Below, piece after piece: positions 4,298 to 54,629 of a stretch of 54,789 bases of DNA. Below the pieces are notes generated by a model, which was given only the letters and a program-made list of their open reading frames with translations, was not told where the DNA came from and ran no database searches. The position numbers were made by a program, and so were the translations under genes. Positions within the stretch are counted from its first letter, which is position 1. Each line of letters opens with the position of its first letter. This DNA comes from Nitrospiraceae bacterium (lineage in GTDB: Bacteria; Nitrospirota; Thermodesulfovibrionia; UBA6902): contig CP070788.1 in NCBI GenBank assembly GCA_020346765.1, positions 1,908,783 to 1,963,571 of the forward strand, read 5' to 3'.

Positions 4298-5584
4298 ATG
4301 AAGAAGCAACTCGCCGTTGTTGTATTGTCATTCATTTTTGTTCTCGCTGCTGCCGTTGGCATGGCAGATGCAGAGAACCGGAAGGGGGCTGTTTCGTTCA
4401 GCCCTCATCTGGGAGGGTATGTCTTTGAAGGGAACCAGAACATTAACAGCGACCCCGTTTATGGAGTAGGGCTTGGCTATAACATTACCGAGAGATTCGG
4501 GCTTGAAGGTGTCTTTGACTGGGTAGATACGGACAGCAGGACAAGCAGCAAGGAGCCTGATGTGGAGGCCATGATTTACCGGCTTGATGCCCTCTATCAT
4601 TTTATGCCGGAAAGCAGCTTTGTGCCCTACGTCAGCCTCGGCGGCGGTGCAATAAACATTAACAAGGACCCCGGGGAGAGCGATACCGACGCCCTGGTTA
4701 ACTACGGAGGCGGGTTCAAGTACTTTGTGACCGACTCCTTTGCCGTACGGGCAGACGTGCGCCATATTATCGATGTTGAAGATGATGTATACAACAATCT
4801 CATTTATACCCTGGGGCTGAACGTGCTCTTCGGCGGACAGGAAAAGGCGCCGGAACCCATGGACAGTGACGGCGACGGGGTTTATGACGATGCAGACAAA
4901 TGCCCTGACACGCCCACGGGGGTGGTTGTTGACCATGACGGATGCCCGCTGGACAGCGACGGGGACGGAGTGCCTGATTACCTGGATAAGTGCCCGGGAA
5001 CACCGGCAGGCGCGGCCGTGGACAAAAATGGATGCCCGCTGGACAGTGACGGTGATGGCGTGCCTGATTACCTGGACAAGTGCCCGGGGACACCGGCAGG
5101 TGCTGCTGTTGACAGCAAAGGATGCCCGCTGGACAGCGACGGTGATGGCGTGCCCGATTATATGGACAAATGTCCCGATACCCCCAAGGGCATCGAGGTT
5201 GATTCTGTGGGGTGCCCCGTACCCATTAAGGAGAAAGTTTCCATCGAACTCCATGTGCTCTTTGATTTCGACAGTGACAGGGTCAAGAGCGTCTACCGCG
5301 AGGACATCGAGAAAGTCGCTGCATTCCTCCAGGCCTATCCTGAGGTGACGGCTGAAATTGAAGGCCACACGGACAGCGTCGGTGCAGAGGAATACAACCA
5401 GAAGCTGTCCCAGAGAAGGGCCACGAACGTCATGAACTACCTGATCGGACAGGGCATTGACCCGAACCGCATTCAGGCCGTGGGGTATGGTGAAAGCAGG
5501 CCCGTTGCTGACAACCAGACAAAGGAGGGACGGGACAGGAACAGGCGGGTACAGGCGGTGATATCCACCATCGTCACAAAGTAA
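4298..5584 (+). CDS. OmpA-family outer membrane protein: N-terminal beta-barrel, thrombospondin type-3-like Ca-binding repeats, C-terminal OmpA peptidoglycan-binding domain
   Basis: The ATG at 4298 lies 7 nt after GGGAGG and is followed by a signal peptide. A barrel-like region comes first. Repeats DSDGDGVPDYLDKCPGTP follow. The C-terminus carries the OmpA_C motif (GHTDSVGAEEYNQKLSQRRA...NRRV). Confidence 0.85.
   Translation: MKKQLAVVVLSFIFVLAAAVGMADAENRKGAVSFSPHLGGYVFEGNQNINSDPVYGVGLGYNITERFGLEGVFDWVDTDSRTSSKEPDVEAMIYRLDALYHFMPESSFVPYVSLGGGAININKDPGESDTDALVNYGGGFKYFVTDSFAVRADVRHIIDVEDDVYNNLIYTLGLNVLFGGQEKAPEPMDSDGDGVYDDADKCPDTPTGVVVDHDGCPLDSDGDGVPDYLDKCPGTPAGAAVDKNGCPLDSDGDGVPDYLDKCPGTPAGAAVDSKGCPLDSDGDGVPDYMDKCPDTPKGIEVDSVGCPVPIKEKVSIELHVLFDFDSDRVKSVYREDIEKVAAFLQAYPEVTAEIEGHTDSVGAEEYNQKLSQRRATNVMNYLIGQGIDPNRIQAVGYGESRPVADNQTKEGRDRNRRVQAVISTIVTK
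4859..5215 (+). repeat. in-frame 90-bp tandem repeats encoding the TSP3-like modules
   Basis: Units start at about 4940, 5030 and 5120 (gatgcccgctggacag[c/t]gacgg...). The first two differ at only a few mostly synonymous positions. A degenerate copy precedes them at about 4859-4939, and the last copy diverges in its second half. Confidence 0.85.
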
Positions 5585-10153: not shown

Positions 10154-11824
10154 ATGAAATTAACTATCGGGAATAAACTGCTCCTGCTCTTTGCCGTCCT
10201 GGTTGTCATGTTTATCATTTTTGCCCTCTATGTCAGGCATGACCTGAAGGAGTACGAAAGGGACTTCGAGAGTGCGGGAGTCGTTCAGAAGAAAATACTG
10301 ATCGCAAAGGACATACAGCTCCATGTCCTGAACCTCTGGCAGTACATGACTGATGCCTCACTGACGAAAGACATGACGGTAATTGAAAAAAAGGCACGGC
10401 CTCATTACGAGGCTGCCCTGCAGCAGGTCGATACGTTTCTCACAACCGGCGATGAGCGGGAACATGAAAAGGAGCTGGCAGCAATAAAGGATGACCTTGC
10501 CGATATGTGGATGACCGGCAAAGAAATGTTTGCTGCCTACAGCCAGGACCAGGATGGGGGAAACAGGATCATGGAGGACTATGCCAGAGGCGCCGGAGGG
10601 ATTGTTGACGCTGTCTCCTCTCTCGAAAAGAGTGTAAACGAAGGGGGCCAGGCTGCCACCGGGACGATATTCCTCAAGGTGGATAAGTCCCTGGCCATTG
10701 TGTCCGCGGTGCTCATCGCGGCATGTATCATCGGAGTGGGTATTTTCCTGTCCCTGCGTTTGCTGAACAAATCTATCACGGTGCCGATCTCCCGAATCGC
10801 CGAAGTTGTGCACAAAGTTGCATCGGGAGACCTGACCGCTTCACTGAAGGACATGACAGTGAAGAACGAGGTGGGTGATCTAGCCCGTGATGTTGATACC
10901 ATGATTGATAAGCTCAGGCTCCTTATCAACCAGGTCATGGGCGGGGTAAATGAACTTTCAGGATCGGCTGACGATCTATCGGAAGTGGCCGTCTATATCG
11001 TTGAAGGTGTATCTGAACAAAGCGGGAAGACCTCCCAGGTGGCAGCTGCCTCTCATGAGCTGAATGCCACGATTCTCGATGTCGCGAAAAACGCCTCAGG
11101 CGCTGCGGACGCAGCGCGGGAGGCCAACGAGGTCGCCAGGGAAGGCGGAAAAATAGTGGAGAAGAGCGTTGTCAGCATCAATGGGATAGCCAGTACGTCG
11201 AAAGAAACGTCGAGTGTCATGGCGGTTTTGGGAACCCGGTCCAAGGAAGTGGGTAACATTATTCAGGTCATCGACGAAATTGCCAGCCAGACGAATCTCC
11301 TCGCCCTGAATGCTGCCATCGAGGCAGCCCGGGCCGGGGAACAGGGCAGGGGGTTCGCTGTTGTGGCAGACGAAGTGAGGAAGCTTGCTGAAAAGACAAC
11401 GGATGCCACAAAGGAAATCGCCCAGACCATCAAGGTAATACAGGAAGACACGGGCAAGGCACTCTCCAGCATGGAGCGAGAAATTGAGGCCGTGGAAGAG
11501 GGGGTTCGCCTTGCCACGGACGCAGGGAGCGCCCTGCAGGACATTGTCAGGAAAGTGGATGAAGTAAGCTCCATGATAGAACATATAGCCGCTGCCTCGG
11601 AAGAACAGTCAACGGCAGCCGAACAGATCGGCAGTGATATTGAACTGGTGGCAAACATATCAAGGGATACGGCTGGAAAAGCCCAGAAGATAGCTGAGAG
11701 AAGCCAGGGAATTGCTATACTTACACAGCAGCTGCGCTCATCGGTAAAGTCCTTCAGGGCAGCAGAAGACCATCCTGCGGCCCGCTCCGAACAGCAGGCA
11801 GAAGCAGCCAGCAGCACCTCATAA
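10154..11824 (+). CDS. methyl-accepting chemotaxis protein (2 TM helices, periplasmic helical sensor, HAMP, MA domain)
   Basis: 556 aa. The highly conserved MCP hairpin is [45 protein letters not shown] segment (ASGDLTA) follows TM2. Confidence 0.9.
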
Positions 11825-13117
11825 TTTCCTTCTGTCAATGACCCTGACGGCCTTGCCCTCGGCGCGTTCCAGGGTCTTTTTCTCAACGAGATTTACCTCT
11901 ACGGCAATGCCGAGTTCAGAGGACAGCCTGTTCCTGATCAGGTCAACAAGGGCATGTTGCTTTTTCATCTCATCGAAAAATATCTGCTCCGACACCTCAA
12001 CGAGAACTGCCACATGGTCCAGGGCTCCTTTCCTGTCAATGATGATCTGGTAGTGGGGTTCCGTGCCTTCAATGTCAAAAAGGACTGCCTCAACCTGTGA
12101 AGGAAAGACATTGACCCCTTTGATGATCAGCATGTCGTCTGTCCTCCCCCTGACCCGGGCGATCTTCCTGAAGGACCTGCCGCAAGGACAGGGCTCCGTG
12201 ATGAAGCTGGTGCGGTCCCGTGTCCTGAAGCGGATCACGGGAAAGGCCTCCTTCGCAAGTGTGGTGATGACCAGCTCACCCTCTTCACCGGAAGGGACCG
12301 GTTCCAGCGTATCGGGATGGACGATTTCAGCAAGGAAGTGGTCTTCGTTCACGTGCAGGCCGTTCTGCTCAAGGCACTCAAAGGCGACGCCCGGACCCAT
12401 CACTTCACTCAGCCCGTAGTTGTCTGTCGCCCGTATCCTGAGCTTGTCTTCGATTTCCTTCCTCATTTTTTCAGACCATGGTTCGGCTCCGAAAAGCCCG
12501 TATTTCAGGGACAGTGAACTGATACTGATCCCCATGTCAAAAATCGTTTCGGCAATGAGCATGGCGTAGCTCGGTGTGCAGATCAGTGCCGTGGTCCTGA
12601 AGTCCTGCATGATCTTGATCTGGCGTGCCGTGTTGCCGCTGGACATGGGTATTACCGAGGCGCCCAGCCGCTCCGCGCCGTAGTGGATCCCGAAGCCGCC
12701 GGTGAACAGGCCGTAGCCAAAGGCTATCTGCACCACATCGTCCCGTGTCACGCCCCCGGCGGTGAGCACGCGGGCAACGAGGTTTGACCATTTCCTGATG
12801 TCGTTTTGTGTGTAGCCTACGACAGTGGACATCCCCGTTGTCCCGGAGGAGGCATGAATCCGCACCACTTCCCGGAGCGGAACGGCAAAAAGGCCGTAGG
12901 GATAGTTGTTCCTCAGGTCGTCCTTGGTCGTGAAGGGAAGCCTCCTGAGGTCATCGACGGACCTGACCGTGTCCGTGTCAATGCCCAGTTCGTCAAACTT
13001 CTTCCGGTAAAAGGGGACGTTCATCTGGACCCTGCTCAGCGTGGACTCCAGTCTCTCCAGCTGGAGCTGCTCAAGCTCGTCCCGGTCCATGCACTCCCTC
13101 TCCTGCTCCCAGTACAT
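11819..13117 (-). CDS. paaK: phenylacetate-CoA ligase family (aryl-acid CoA ligase), copy 1
   Basis: 432 aa. PaaK-family features are the N-terminus ([25 protein letters not shown]), the AMP motif IHASSGTTG, and YGLSE. Confidence 0.85.
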
Positions 13118-13127
13118 AATGCCCTCC

Positions 13128-13188
13128 CTGATATCAGTTGTAAGTTGTTAGTTATCAGTTTTCAGTCTAAAAACTAACAACTAACAGC
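13128..13188 (-). repeat. heptad-periodic hairpin element A in the livF-paaK spacer
   Basis: The mRNA-sense sequence reads GCUGUUA GUUGUUA GUUUUUA GACUGAA AACUGAU AACUAAC AACUUAC AACUGAU AUCAG, then GGGAGGGCAUU-AUG. GUUAGUUGUUAGUU pairs with AACUAACAACUUAC at 13 of 14 positions. Confidence 0.7.
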
Positions 13189-13217
13189 GTGTCTTTGCAC
13201 TCGAATCCTCAAGCAAC

Positions 13218-13949
13218 TCACCTCTCAGCATCAAGGTCCCTTCCCAGGTAGGCCCTCTGGACGTCCCTGTTTGCAAGGAGTTCTTCCGACGGCCCCTGGA
13301 CAATGATCCTGCCTGTCTCAAGAACGTAGCCCCGGTCAGCGATTCCCAGGGCCGCCCTGGCGTTCTGCTCCACGAGGAGAATAGTGATGCCCTCGTCGCG
13401 CAGCTTCCTGACGATGAAGAATATCTGCTTTACCACAAGGGGCGCCAGCCCCATGGACGGCTCATCCATCATGATGAGCTTTGGCCGGGCCATCTGCGCC
13501 CTGCCGATGGCAAGCATCTGCTGCTCGCCCCCTGAAAGAGTGCCGGCAAGCTGATGCTGCCGTTCCCTGAGCACGGGAAACAGATGATAAACGTTATCGA
13601 GTTCCTCACCGGTCTTACTCCCTTCCCCCCGCTTCCTGAGGACTGAGGCCCCCAGGAGAAGGTTCTCCCGCACGGTCATGGTCTGAAAGACCTGTCTGCC
13701 TTCGGGGACCAGGGAGCACCCTGCAGCCACTCTCTGTTCCGGCGGGAGGCCTGATATGTCTCTCCCGCTGAAAAGGACTTCTCCTGCCCGCGCCCTGACG
13801 AGTCCGGAAAGGGTGCTGAGGAGCGTTGTCTTGCCTGCGCCGTTTGCGCCGATCATGGTGACGATCTCGCCGGGGCTCACATGCATGGTGACCCTTCTCA
13901 GTACCGTAAGGCTTCCGTAGCCCGCCTCCAGGTTCCTGATCTTAAGCAC
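13218..13949 (-). CDS. livF: branched-chain amino acid ABC transporter ATP-binding protein LivF
   Basis: 243 aa. It has Walker A GANGAGKTT, the signature LSGGEQQML, and the LivF-type C-terminus. Confidence 0.9.
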   Translation of the reverse strand: MLKIRNLEAGYGSLTVLRRVTMHVSPGEIVTMIGANGAGKTTLLSTLSGLVRARAGEVLFSGRDISGLPPEQRVAAGCSLVPEGRQVFQTMTVRENLLLGASVLRKRGEGSKTGEELDNVYHLFPVLRERQHQLAGTLSGGEQQMLAIGRAQMARPKLIMMDEPSMGLAPLVVKQIFFIVRKLRDEGITILLVEQNARAALGIADRGYVLETGRIIVQGPSEELLANRDVQRAYLGRDLDAER

Positions 13950-16675: not shown

Positions 16676-16691
16676 AGCGGTTGATATGAAT

Positions 16692-16724
16692 CAGGGAGTA
16701 TTCAGACATTGTGAATACTCCCTG
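16692..16724 (-). other. intercistronic 13-bp perfect stem-loop between the binding-protein gene and livH
   Basis: CAGGGAGTATTCA - 7 nt - TGAATACTCCCTG. There is no U-tract. The position after the highly expressed binding-protein gene suggests a decay barrier or partial attenuator. Confidence 0.6.
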
Positions 16725-16751
16725 TAAGAAGAACAGCGCTGATACGGTTAA

Positions 16752-18367: not shown

Positions 18368-18377
18368 GGAGCGCTCC

Positions 18378-18464
18378 TTTTCAGCTGCAAGCTTTTAGCT
18401 ATAAGCTTTCAGCTACAAAAAAAGATTTATTATGTCGTTTGCTGACAGCTTACAGCCAACAGCG
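18378..18464 (-). repeat. heptad-periodic hairpin element B in the paaK-ACT spacer (homologous to element A)
   Basis: The mRNA-sense sequence reads GCUGUUG GCUGUAA GCUGUCA GC, then a 27-nt loop, then GCUGAAA GCUUAUA GCUAAAA GCUUGCA GCUGAAA AGGAGCGCUCC-AUG. The two heptad blocks are largely complementary. Confidence 0.7.
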
Positions 18465-18474
18465 CATAACTGAT

Positions 18475-30598: not shown

Positions 30599-30803
30599 TT
30601 TTGAAGGGTGGTATATTCTTCCCACCTTGCCGTGTAGAAAAAAAACTATAAACCCCGTTTTACAGGTGGGTTCCCCGAAAGCAGGATCAGGCTTCCCCGA
30701 AGGGGCGCACCACATGCTTTACGCAGGATCCCTTAATTAATTTGGTCGGAATAAGTTTTAATTCCAATCACGAGCAAGGCAGGTATTTCTGGTCATGCCT
30801 TGT
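30572..30803 (-). ncRNA. candidate structured RNA (sRNA, or terminator-containing leader of the M20 gene), class unknown
   Basis: It is bounded by a sigma70-like promoter (30810..30838) and an intrinsic terminator (30572..30598). Several hairpins lie in between, including a C(UUCG)G tetraloop stem (GCCCCUUCGGGGA) and GGUGG-N10-CCACC. No credible ORF is present. Confidence 0.35.
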
Positions 30804-31712: not shown

Positions 31713-31794
31713 TGAAGCCAGAGATCAAAAGTGCAGAAGTTCCATCGTTTAATTGTTTGACTTCTTGCTCTGGAGCTATGGAACTATAGAACTT

Positions 31795-53960: not shown

Positions 53961-54029
53961 GCAGGAGAGGGCCAAAGTGCAGAAATGCCAAAGCACTGAG
54001 GACGTGGGATCAGCGCCTTGACTGTGGAA

Positions 54030-54629
54030 CTACGGCACTACGGTACTAGGGCACTTAATTATCCGCTTATCGGTGATGATGATGTCGACTTTGATATCGT
54101 GGGGCTCGTCGGGGATGTGGTCGCCGATCTGTTCTTCATAGGCGAGGGCGACTGTGGGGATATGGTCGACCCGGGCAAGTTTTTTGGCCTCCAGGCTCAG
54201 CAGCCTGTCATAATAACCGCCGCCATAGCCGAGGCGGCTGCCTCTCAGGTTGAATCCTGTGCCGGGGATAACAACGAGGTCAATATTATTTAAAAATACT
54301 TGCCGGCCCGCTCTAACCCCCGGCTCGGGAATCCCCATATATCCCGGGACAAGCTCCGATATGTCTTTTATCTCGTAGAGGTGCAGGACTTTGCGGCCCG
54401 GATCGACAACAGGCAGGACCAGTCTCTTACCCAGGGCGAGCACATCCTGAAGATAACTTCTGGTATTTACCTCAGAGCGGAATGAGACATACATCAGCAA
54501 ACAGGCCGCTTTTTTGAAGGTCTCAAGGGCAAAGAGCCGCTTTTTGATGGAAGCATCCTTCAGCTTCTTCCTGTCGGGAGGTATGGCGTCCCGCTTTTTC
54601 AGCAGATGTGCCCTGAGCTTCTGTTTCAC
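54030..54629 (-). CDS. 5-formyltetrahydrofolate cyclo-ligase
   Basis: 199 aa with a GTG start. It shows LRAHLLKKRDAI, VLPVV, VVIPGTGFNLRGSRLGYGGGYYDR. Confidence 0.85.
   Translation of the reverse strand: MKQKLRAHLLKKRDAIPPDRKKLKDASIKKRLFALETFKKAACLLMYVSFRSEVNTRSYLQDVLALGKRLVLPVVDPGRKVLHLYEIKDISELVPGYMGIPEPGVRAGRQVFLNNIDLVVIPGTGFNLRGSRLGYGGGYYDRLLSLEAKKLARVDHIPTVALAYEEQIGDHIPDEPHDIKVDIIITDKRIIKCPSTVVP

Follow-up and report, generated by a model that had tools for sequence, protein, structure and literature searches.

The stretch of DNA analysed here (the window; 54,789 nt) comes from a metagenome-assembled genome (MAG) of Thermodesulfovibrionia, 2.69 Mb in size and in 353 pieces (G000), and between 11.8 and 24.4 kb its minus strand encodes, in order, iorA, iorB, paaK2, ACT, livK, livH, livM, livG, livF and paaK1. 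The last two cistrons, livF (13218..13949, minus strand, stop codon at 13218-13220) and copy 1 of paaK (paaK1; 11819..13117, minus strand), are separated by a 100-nt spacer carrying an element built of seven-nucleotide units, here termed E1, which is the subject of this study; a second heptad element, E2, lies in the spacer between paaK2 and ACT. In the mRNA sense the livF-paaK1 spacer reads UGA GUUGCUUGAGGAUUCGAGUGCAAAGACACGC UGUUAGU UGUUAGU UUUUAGA CUGAAAA CUGAUAA CUAACAA CUUACAA CUGAUAU CAG GGAGGG CAUU AUG, with ACGC directly preceding the 5′ heptads.

E1 occupies 13135..13188 of the minus strand and consists of a 5′ arm of three units of the UGUUAGU type and a 3′ arm of five units of the nAACUnA type, as judged by reading of the sequence, by lag-7 autocorrelation and by Tandem Repeats Finder (TRF), which assigns period 7 to each arm. 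The three plus five heptads in one register that a preliminary description of this DNA had reported are therefore present. The period had also been called strict. It is real, with 39 of 54 positions in 13128-13188 identical at lag 7 against 11-20 at other lags, and none of 2000 dinucleotide shuffles attained this value (15.0 ± 3.3, maximum 25); at an identity of 72-78%, however, it is not strict. Nor do heptads dominate the whole spacer, as first thought, but about 55-60 of its 100 bases, the 5′ third (13193..13213, minus strand) being a remnant of the outer arm of an octamer repeat (CUUGAGGAUUCGAGUGCAAAG). This remnant was identified by its alignment with two kinds of arm, those of composite elements and that in front of the gene IVP1, both described below, and has no matching right-hand arm.

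Minimum-free-energy folding predicted an RNA hairpin at 13146..13186 (minus strand) of 19 bp, G-U pairs included, with a 3-nt loop (13165-13167) and a free energy of -25.3 kcal/mol in context. An alternative register with the arms shifted by 7 nt lies 2.4 kcal/mol above the minimum (-22.9 kcal/mol), and the 14-bp stem with an 18-nt loop proposed previously is this one-heptad slide, so that the arms do pair, but preferentially in another register. The palindrome CUGAUAUCAG (13128-13137), correctly noted as adjoining the Shine-Dalgarno (SD) sequence, overlaps it by one base. The SD itself, GGGAGGG (13122-13128), is separated by 4 nt from the paaK1 AUG (13115-13117), and this SD-to-AUG module (13115..13128, minus strand) is kept in orthologues without the element. 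With an A/U-rich stem and no U-tract E1 does not have the make-up of an intrinsic terminator, and promoter and terminator scans found neither terminator-like nor promoter-like sites at E1 or E2, in agreement with the earlier statement that no classical terminator is present. Rfam covariance models, at gathering as well as permissive thresholds, gave no match at E1 or E2, E1 reaching only chance level (E > 3), and there is no open reading frame (ORF) in the loop of E1 (3 nt) or of E2 (26 nt).

The heptads had been proposed to serve in dedicated post-transcriptional control, as a platform offering several sites to an oligomeric RNA-binding protein that would set the translation of paaK1 or, for E2, of the ACT gene. 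Consistent with such a platform, the unit cores are invariant and their spacing is fixed at 7 nt, the SD is 7-14 nt away from the element, and the 5′ arm of E1 reads UAG-N4-UAG-N4-UAG, resembling a HutP site. HutP itself was not found: a HutP-type antiterminator site was considered and rejected, since the 5′ arm fits (UAG-N4) x 3 but no PF09021 gene was found in this 80%-complete genome and the motif is missing from E2. Accessibility of the SD is predicted to change little, and in a manner too dependent on context to be relied on (mean unpaired probability of the SD 0.31 with E1 and 0.55 without it, in one 271-nt context), which also speaks against the platform.

The related element noticed previously at a distance of 5 kb is E2, which extends over 18368..18474 of the minus strand and likewise follows the plan of three plus five units, with 3 x UGUnnGC, an A/U-rich loop of 26 nt and 5 x AGCUnnn (unit family TCAGCnn/GCUGAnn). 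Its lag-7 matches number 48, compared with 25.4 ± 4.6 in shuffles. Aligned unit by unit, E1 and E2 read ACUGAAA ACUGAUA ACUAACA ACUUACA ACUGAUA and GCUGAAA GCUUAUA GCUAAAA GCUUGCA GCUGAAA, respectively; 11 of the 15 variable positions are common to both, and an A-U pair in the E1 core is a G-C pair throughout the E2 units. An exact look-up of the ACT protein recovered E2 on a single contig from a second sample (Logan SRR31444218), with the same copy number and only one single-nucleotide difference, in the loop; an exact look-up of the LivF protein for further samples gave no match.

Orthologous spacers and the genome-wide repeat class

The order of the ten-gene operon is kept in three other genera (genomes G018, G007 and G013). 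The livF-paaK1 spacer measures 18 nt in G018 and 19 nt in G013, both with GGAGG-N4-6-AUG and no element, and in G007 it is an unrelated AT-rich sequence of 196 nt. At least nine further relatives have livF-paaK spacers of 14-24 nt with the same SD and no element, and many Nitrospirota spacers among 80 paaK loci from public genomes fall in this size range. Orthologous operons in G018, G013 and these relatives thus lack a conserved element at this position while using the same paaK1 SD, which argues against a platform for translational control. Other Nitrospirota carry different periodic hairpins in the same paaK spacer, with units GATTGGT or GTGTCAG, AAGGATTC octamers or E1-like AAAACTN, and Desulfobacterota have units of ATCTTCA, CCCTAAC and AACCTTG. 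A hairpin of another kind is found in the livK-livH spacer (window 16690-16740, minus strand), where a non-periodic 13-bp stem (GGGAGUAUUCA...UGAAUACUCCC; z = -4.3) is conserved in place with compensatory changes in G018, G007 and G013, that is in all four genomes. Located after the gene for the binding protein, this hairpin probably represents a genuine site of stabilisation or processing between cistrons, and its conservation and covariation indicate that true conserved intercistronic structures are recognisable in this operon.

The paaK2-ACT spacer is 8-50 nt long and element-free in most relatives, and in G018 holds a remnant of two to three units. In Desulfobaccales and delta-proteobacterial MAGs (loci L176, L190, L194 and L195) it was observed to hold four to five direct heptads CCACTGR immediately 5′ of the SD, without an inverted partner and preceded by a conserved small hairpin (GGAAAAGATTTCT..), an arrangement common to the four genomes.

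Beyond these spacers, the E1 core with its apex UUUUUAGACUGAAAA recurs at about ten other sites in this genome and at dozens in other genera, and three consecutive nAACTnA units were detected in 62 of the 301 Nitrospirota genomes sampled, patchily distributed and with as many as 99 matches in one of them. In three genomes of other genera (G014, G010 and G035) hairpins of the E1 type terminate right at an AUG that has no SD, a placement that resembles the TAACTGA repeats discussed below (PMC4679880) and could be taken in favour of the RNA platform. In the GAACTNA family of genome G020, on the other hand, it is the reverse orientation that adjoins the start codon, so that the common feature is the palindrome and not a motif of the sense strand, which counts against that platform.

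The pattern search suggested in the preliminary description, (NAGYTNN) x 4, gave 14 matches in this genome and none in a shuffled genome. Counted more generally with TRF, at three or more copies, arrays number about 165, of which 83 have period 7 and 82 period 8; 24 arrays have period 6, 14 have period 9, and any other period is represented by at most 6. A block-shuffled genome yielded 7 period-7 arrays and 1 period-8 array. With gene calls from a codon model made in this analysis (22% of the genome being non-coding), 134 of the 165 arrays were mostly intergenic, 71/83 at period 7 and 63/82 at period 8. Their density per kb is 0.32 in co-directional and 0.35 in convergent spacers but 0.06, five-fold lower, in divergent ones (p = 6e-6), and in co-directional spacers the elements typically span the distance from stop codon to SD. 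Hairpins of at least 14 bp were predicted in 76% of array-bearing spacers compared with 55% of other spacers. About nine unit families were distinguished, among them AGCTnnn/CAGCTnn, CCAGATG, GTCAAAA, nAACTnA, CGGAAGnn, AAGGRTTC/AAGGGGTC, TGGAACTA and ATGGAGnA. Conservation within units is strongly position-specific (chi-square p between 3e-3 and 6e-26), a core of 5-6 nt being invariant whereas about two positions are free; in the hairpins core faces core, and the free positions are often opposed as small internal loops. Short octamer arrays of families common in this genome were also observed elsewhere in the window, TGGAACTA x 2.9 at 31771-31793 and ACTACGGC x 3.4 at 54029-54055, with no convincing inverted partner.

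No unit family showed a preference for the sense or antisense strand relative to transcription, and array-bearing spacers fold only 1.2 kcal/mol better in the sense direction (32 versus 25 loci, p = 0.31), no more than ordinary spacers do. The equal density in convergent spacers, together with the depletion in divergent ones, is a distribution of the kind known for repetitive extragenic palindromic (REP) sequences and is hard to square with a function directed at start codons. It further speaks against the RNA platform that convergent spacers have no downstream start codon, that a sense bias is missing from every family, and that nine or more different cores would require as many binders. E1 is thus one of about 165 generic dispersed repeats, and in orthologous operons a conserved element is missing as well, two outcomes that the preliminary description had itself named as refuting a dedicated role; a translational control element specific to paaK is therefore unsupported.

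Members of the class also lie within genes. Twenty-odd arrays were found inside long ORFs of this genome, and a (CGGAAGnn)n palindrome at G000:C1:1178396-1178466 (locus L211) adds 24 residues to the class II ribonucleotide reductase NrdJ, inserted between positions 344 and 346, which are adjacent in T. maritima NrdJ. The loop receiving this insert is hypervariable, differing in length and sequence in every relative examined. Similar in-frame (CGGAAGnn)n copies occur in other conserved genes of G000, among them those of CarB, an MqnE-like radical-SAM enzyme and a paralogue of NrdJ, at 2375717-2377177, 1824318-1825484, 1877484-1879346, 1366219-1368018, 2118909-2122976 and 495236-496384; the encoded peptides are of the SAEVRK..GLP.FRSS type. 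In G020, long ORFs at loci L101, L116, L127 and L129 contain perfect (AACTCAA) x 4 arrays. These in-frame copies indicate that the class settles wherever it is tolerated.

Arms of the same families around S23p genes

S23p (PF05635) is a family of small, homopentameric four-helix-bundle proteins of the intervening sequences (IVSs) of 23S rRNA. This genome has three PF05635 genes (loci L225-L227), IVP1 at G000:C1:361361-361675 and two others at 1486460-1486759 and 1161930-1162205, and each adjoins 7- or 8-nt arrays, whereas only 7.2% of all genes do. IVP1 sits in the loop of an (AAGGRTTC)n octamer hairpin whose inner ends (...GGGTTCAAGTGAAA / CACTCGAATCC...) are those of gene-less octamer hairpins, and IVP2 lies between (CGAAATn)n and (nATTTCG)n. 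Across six Thermodesulfovibrionia genomes, inverted flanks whose unit families also occur in the gene-less hairpins were found at 20 of 24 PF05635 genes. Strongly periodic flanks were seen at 16 of the 24, as opposed to none of 44 control windows 700-900 nt away. Among the arm families at these genes are TCAGCnn/GCTGAnn, the family of E2 (G020, locus L235), and GAACTNA (G020 and G014), whose arms the E1 heptads resemble in sequence but not in polarity.

The arms also follow the lineages of the proteins they enclose. Where S23p proteins from different genomes share an arm family, they are each other's best match (68, 73 and 81% identity); paralogues within a genome average 29%. None of 5000 label shuffles attained the observed association, a test that used arm labels assigned by eye and genomes that, being related, are not independent of one another. 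Within the sampled phylum PF05635 was present in 30 of about 31 genomes with at least four array hits, and four families without PF05635 (52 genomes) were free of arrays. IVP1 is closely homologous to XCC0516 (2gsc, five chains, E = 8e-24), a homopentameric toroid to which PMC4990558 refers for the structure of S23p. The 23S rRNA IVSs that carry S23p have complementary termini which are cleaved by RNase III (PMC4990558), and a gene for RNase III is present in this genome. A kinship of S23p with Avd, a protein of diversity-generating retroelements, is said to exist; when the PDB was searched with a profile of the 24 proteins, 2rld and 2gsc were the only matches and none was an Avd chain, and this kinship was not used as evidence.

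E1 is connected to these arms through its left flank, GAGGAUUCGAGUGCAAAG, which aligns with the inner end of octamer arms ((AAGGRTTC)n...CAAGTGAAA) as well as with the arm preceding IVP1. Four composite elements consist of an E1-type heptad hairpin between octamer arms, an arrangement of which E1 itself lacks the right-hand octamer arm.

Origin of E1 and alternative explanations

E1 belongs to a dispersed class of periodic palindromes, its position is not conserved, members of the class are inserted in frame in genes, and the class is tied to the arms that flank S23p genes. It is probably a gene-less copy of this class, which would have a fast turnover, with at most a generic effect on paaK1 and no dedicated design. 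The class, its arms being short tandem arrays of 3-5 units of 7 or 8 nt, would have colonised permissive sites in Thermodesulfovibrionia, namely intra-operon spacers from stop codon to SD, convergent gaps and variable surface loops of proteins, where it would be read in frame. Because the same kinds of arms bracket S23p/PF05635 genes, E1 and E2 are best taken as miniature or orphan relatives of S23p hairpin cassettes, E1 being presumably partly decayed. E1 would have entered between the livF stop codon and a pre-existing paaK1 SD and would be co-transcribed with the operon, its A/U-rich hairpin of about 19 bp forming upstream of the SD in the mRNA. Any effect would be generic and incidental, either as an exonuclease barrier protecting the upstream mRNA or as a possible RNase III site uncoupling the two cistrons, and E1 would itself be a selfish or neutral palindromic repeat.

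Several observations weigh against this interpretation. Neither a transposase, a target-site duplication nor a polymorphism of empty and filled sites among close strains was found; mobility, like transcription and any RNA-level effect of E1, is therefore something we can only infer. Neither E1 nor E2 has a long close paralogue, BLAST giving only matches of 24-28 nt at the apex; there is accordingly no sign of a recently active copy-and-paste element, and there are no orthologues from which the proposed covariance model of liv/paaK spacers could be built. Together with the near-identity of E2 in the second sample, this suggests that E1 and E2 are neither hypervariable microsatellites nor products of recent copy-and-paste. 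The GAACTNA arms around PF05635 genes have the reverse polarity of the E1 arms (5′ TnAGTTn ... nAACTnA 3′), and no PF05635 gene with E1-type arms was found. The paaK2-ACT spacers of G007 and of one distant MAG hold an E2-like TCAGCnn/GCTGAnn hairpin; the three hairpins at the E2 position share a common structure, with no net covariation support. The sense strand outfolds the antisense strand by 5.6 kcal/mol at E1 and by 9.8 kcal/mol at E2, which would be compatible with selection on the RNA at these two elements and would also suit an RNA platform. Finally, the genome is only 80% complete.

Among the alternatives, purely local simple-sequence DNA, born in place by polymerase slippage and decaying neutrally with neither mobility nor any link to S23p, is unlikely. 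Long simple-sequence repeats of many bacteria are most often heptanucleotides, for which an origin by slippage has been proposed (Mrazek 2007, as far as summarised in PMC4679880 and PMC4692102), the same spacer holds different units in different lineages, and the missing close paralogues of E1 and E2 would fit as well. Slippage, however, yields direct arrays, yet most loci are hairpins; units vary at set positions only, different genera share the conserved apex TTTTTAGACTGAAAA, composite octamer-plus-heptamer units recur, and arm families follow S23p protein lineages. The equal copy number of E2 in the second sample, a single comparison, points in the same direction. The earlier suggestion of slippage-derived sequence recruited as an intercistronic structure thus holds in so far as E1 is simple-sequence-like DNA forming an intercistronic hairpin, but an origin by slippage in place has to contend with the inverted arms and the fixed-position variation.

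It is quite unlikely that the paired inverted arrays are sites on the DNA for a nucleoid-associated or global regulator of the IHF/HU type, or for a recombinase, and act on the chromosome. The lack of strand bias relative to transcription, a sense folding advantage no greater than that of ordinary spacers, and the intragenic copies would all agree with such sites, and equivalent paired sites of Geobacter metallireducens were read in this way by Aklujkar et al. 2009 (PMC2700814). Depletion in divergent spacers, which bear the promoters, is nevertheless the reverse of what a transcription factor would lead one to expect, a unit spacing of 7-8 bp is out of phase with the DNA helix, no protein binding such sites is known, and the proposal has not been put to a test in Geobacter. 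The dedicated oligomeric-protein platform controlling paaK translation is very improbable, given element-free orthologues and a dispersed class.

Elsewhere in the window, a 6S RNA was identified at 30615-30788 on the minus strand (Rfam RF00013, 76 bits). A 90-nt tandem repeat at 4940-5177 (2.6 copies, 87% identical) is probably a coding repeat, since one of its frames resembles calcium-binding repeats of the DxDxDG type.

Related repeats in other bacteria and significance

With at least three tandem units, inverted arrays, many intergenic loci and non-conserved sites, E1 has the characteristics of hepta- and octanucleotide paired palindromes. The closest description is that of Geobacter metallireducens, where 24, 21 and 8 inverted pairs of sites with 3-5 tandem octa- or heptanucleotides, for example at proB-proA, were reported together with 49 four-heptamer elements, some of them within genes, and were read as sites of global regulators (IHF/HU) without a test (Aklujkar et al. 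2009, PMC2700814). As in the present genome, those sites have 3-5 units of 7-9 nt (GTTGCTYN, TCTCCGTS(Y), MTYCTGA, GGACCGG) in opposite-strand pairs at variable distance, occur by the dozen in intergenic or intercistronic as well as intragenic positions, and differ in sequence at the same site between sister species. They differ in phylum and in units, and a link to S23p was not reported for them. Direct repeats of TAACTGA have been described in marine Beggiatoaceae, some Cyanobacteria and Bacteroidetes (MacGregor 2015, PMC4679880); of the 170 sets in BOGUAY only one is inverted and 147 are oriented to the start codon, and related heptamers rarely repeat (PMC4679880). The 3′ arm of E1, read as AGACUGA AAACUGA UAACUAA CAACUUA CAACUGA, consists of one-base variants of this unit, and the E1-type elements of G014, G010 and G035 stop at a start codon without an SD as in BOGUAY. 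The elements studied here are nonetheless palindromes with many coexisting unit families and no orientation bias, and E1 retains a strong SD, ending 7 nt before it. With units that are only variants, about nine repeating families in the genome and a palindromic plan in place of direct repeats facing a start codon, E1 does not belong to the TAACTGA repeats.

Short tandemly repeated repetitive (STRR) heptanucleotides of cyanobacteria were reportedly described by Mazel et al. in 1990. Heptamers are also found in Nostoc, and GGGAATC repeats, some of them inverted, in Xanthomonas (PMC4692102; bioRxiv 10.1101/2022.06.06.494920). Such arrays are tandem heptamers enriched in intergenic regions, some form inverted pairs able to fold into hairpins, and they vary in length and sequence between close species. 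They are, however, often long and near-perfect, some being G-rich and capable of forming quadruplexes, whereas the arrays of this genome are short, comprising 3-5 units, vary at fixed positions, occur together with octamers and are sometimes nested. REP sequences and the related bacterial interspersed mosaic elements (BIMEs) and REP doublets forming hairpins (REPINs) are short intergenic palindromes of proteobacteria, high in copy number, near-identical and non-periodic, and are tied to REP-associated tyrosine transposases (RAYTs). The preference for co-directional and convergent spacers, the rarity in divergent ones and generic hairpin effects on operon mRNA are shared with the present class, the copies of which are, in contrast, periodic and highly diverged. 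A REP/RAYT model was rejected, as the sole Y1 transposase gene (PF01797) of this 80%-complete genome is IS200-like and has non-periodic flanks. This gene lies at a contig end (G000:C1:2238914-2239273, locus L096) and has ordinary GC-rich subterminal hairpins.

Rickettsia palindromic elements were reportedly described by Ogata et al. in 2000 as lying in frame within conserved protein genes and being read as extra peptide. The in-frame (CGGAAGnn)n palindromes resemble them in this respect, a likeness that covers the octamer family, but the Rickettsia elements are 100-150 bp long and not built from 7- or 8-nt units. The S23p IVSs of Leptospira, Coxiella and the Xanthomonas family (PMC4990558) have a PF05635 gene between complementary termini that form a long stem, as do the cassettes described above; E1 differs in having no ORF in its loop and in lying in a predicted mRNA and not in rRNA, and a periodic 7- or 8-nt sub-structure of the IVS stems is not described in PMC4990558.

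The class to which E1 belongs is therefore already described in kind, in Geobacter metallireducens, cyanobacteria, Xanthomonas and Beggiatoaceae, and is still unexplained. With the present data Thermodesulfovibrionia, along with Desulfobacterota MAGs, join the lineages that have hepta- and octanucleotide palindromes in their spacers, a phenomenon known since 1990. For annotation, such elements lengthen spacers, generate spurious ORFs and break assemblies. Since the operon functions in relatives that lack it, the hairpin upstream of paaK1 does not merit annotation as a regulator of aromatic-acid activation. Three clues can be put to use: the conservation of fixed positions in the units, the in-frame copies in essential genes, and the association of arm families with S23p lineages in six genomes, the last of which makes the question of the heptamer repeats testable at the bench. 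The arms flanking genes for the homopentameric S23p/PF05635 proteins and the invariant unit cores lend circumstantial support to a generalised form of the oligomer platform. Tentatively, and with the odds against so broad a proposal, the palindromes with 7- or 8-nt periods that occur in many bacteria, including STRR-type heptamers, the paired sites of Geobacter and E1 and E2 themselves, might represent a selfish cassette of wide distribution, either as its arms or as miniatures that lack its gene, the cargo being the homopentameric, toroidal S23p. Recognition would be specific to each S23p lineage and its unit, one subunit binding one unit of 7-8 nt, which would account for the 3-5 units per arm, the invariant core and the free spacer positions; the pair of protein and arm would drive spread or maintenance, and cutting of the stem by RNase III would be its consequence at the RNA level. 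The S23p association, if general, could make such elements an understood system, in which S23p and the heptamer repeats of bacteria would both gain a function and the idea of an oligomeric binder would be rescued in a general form.

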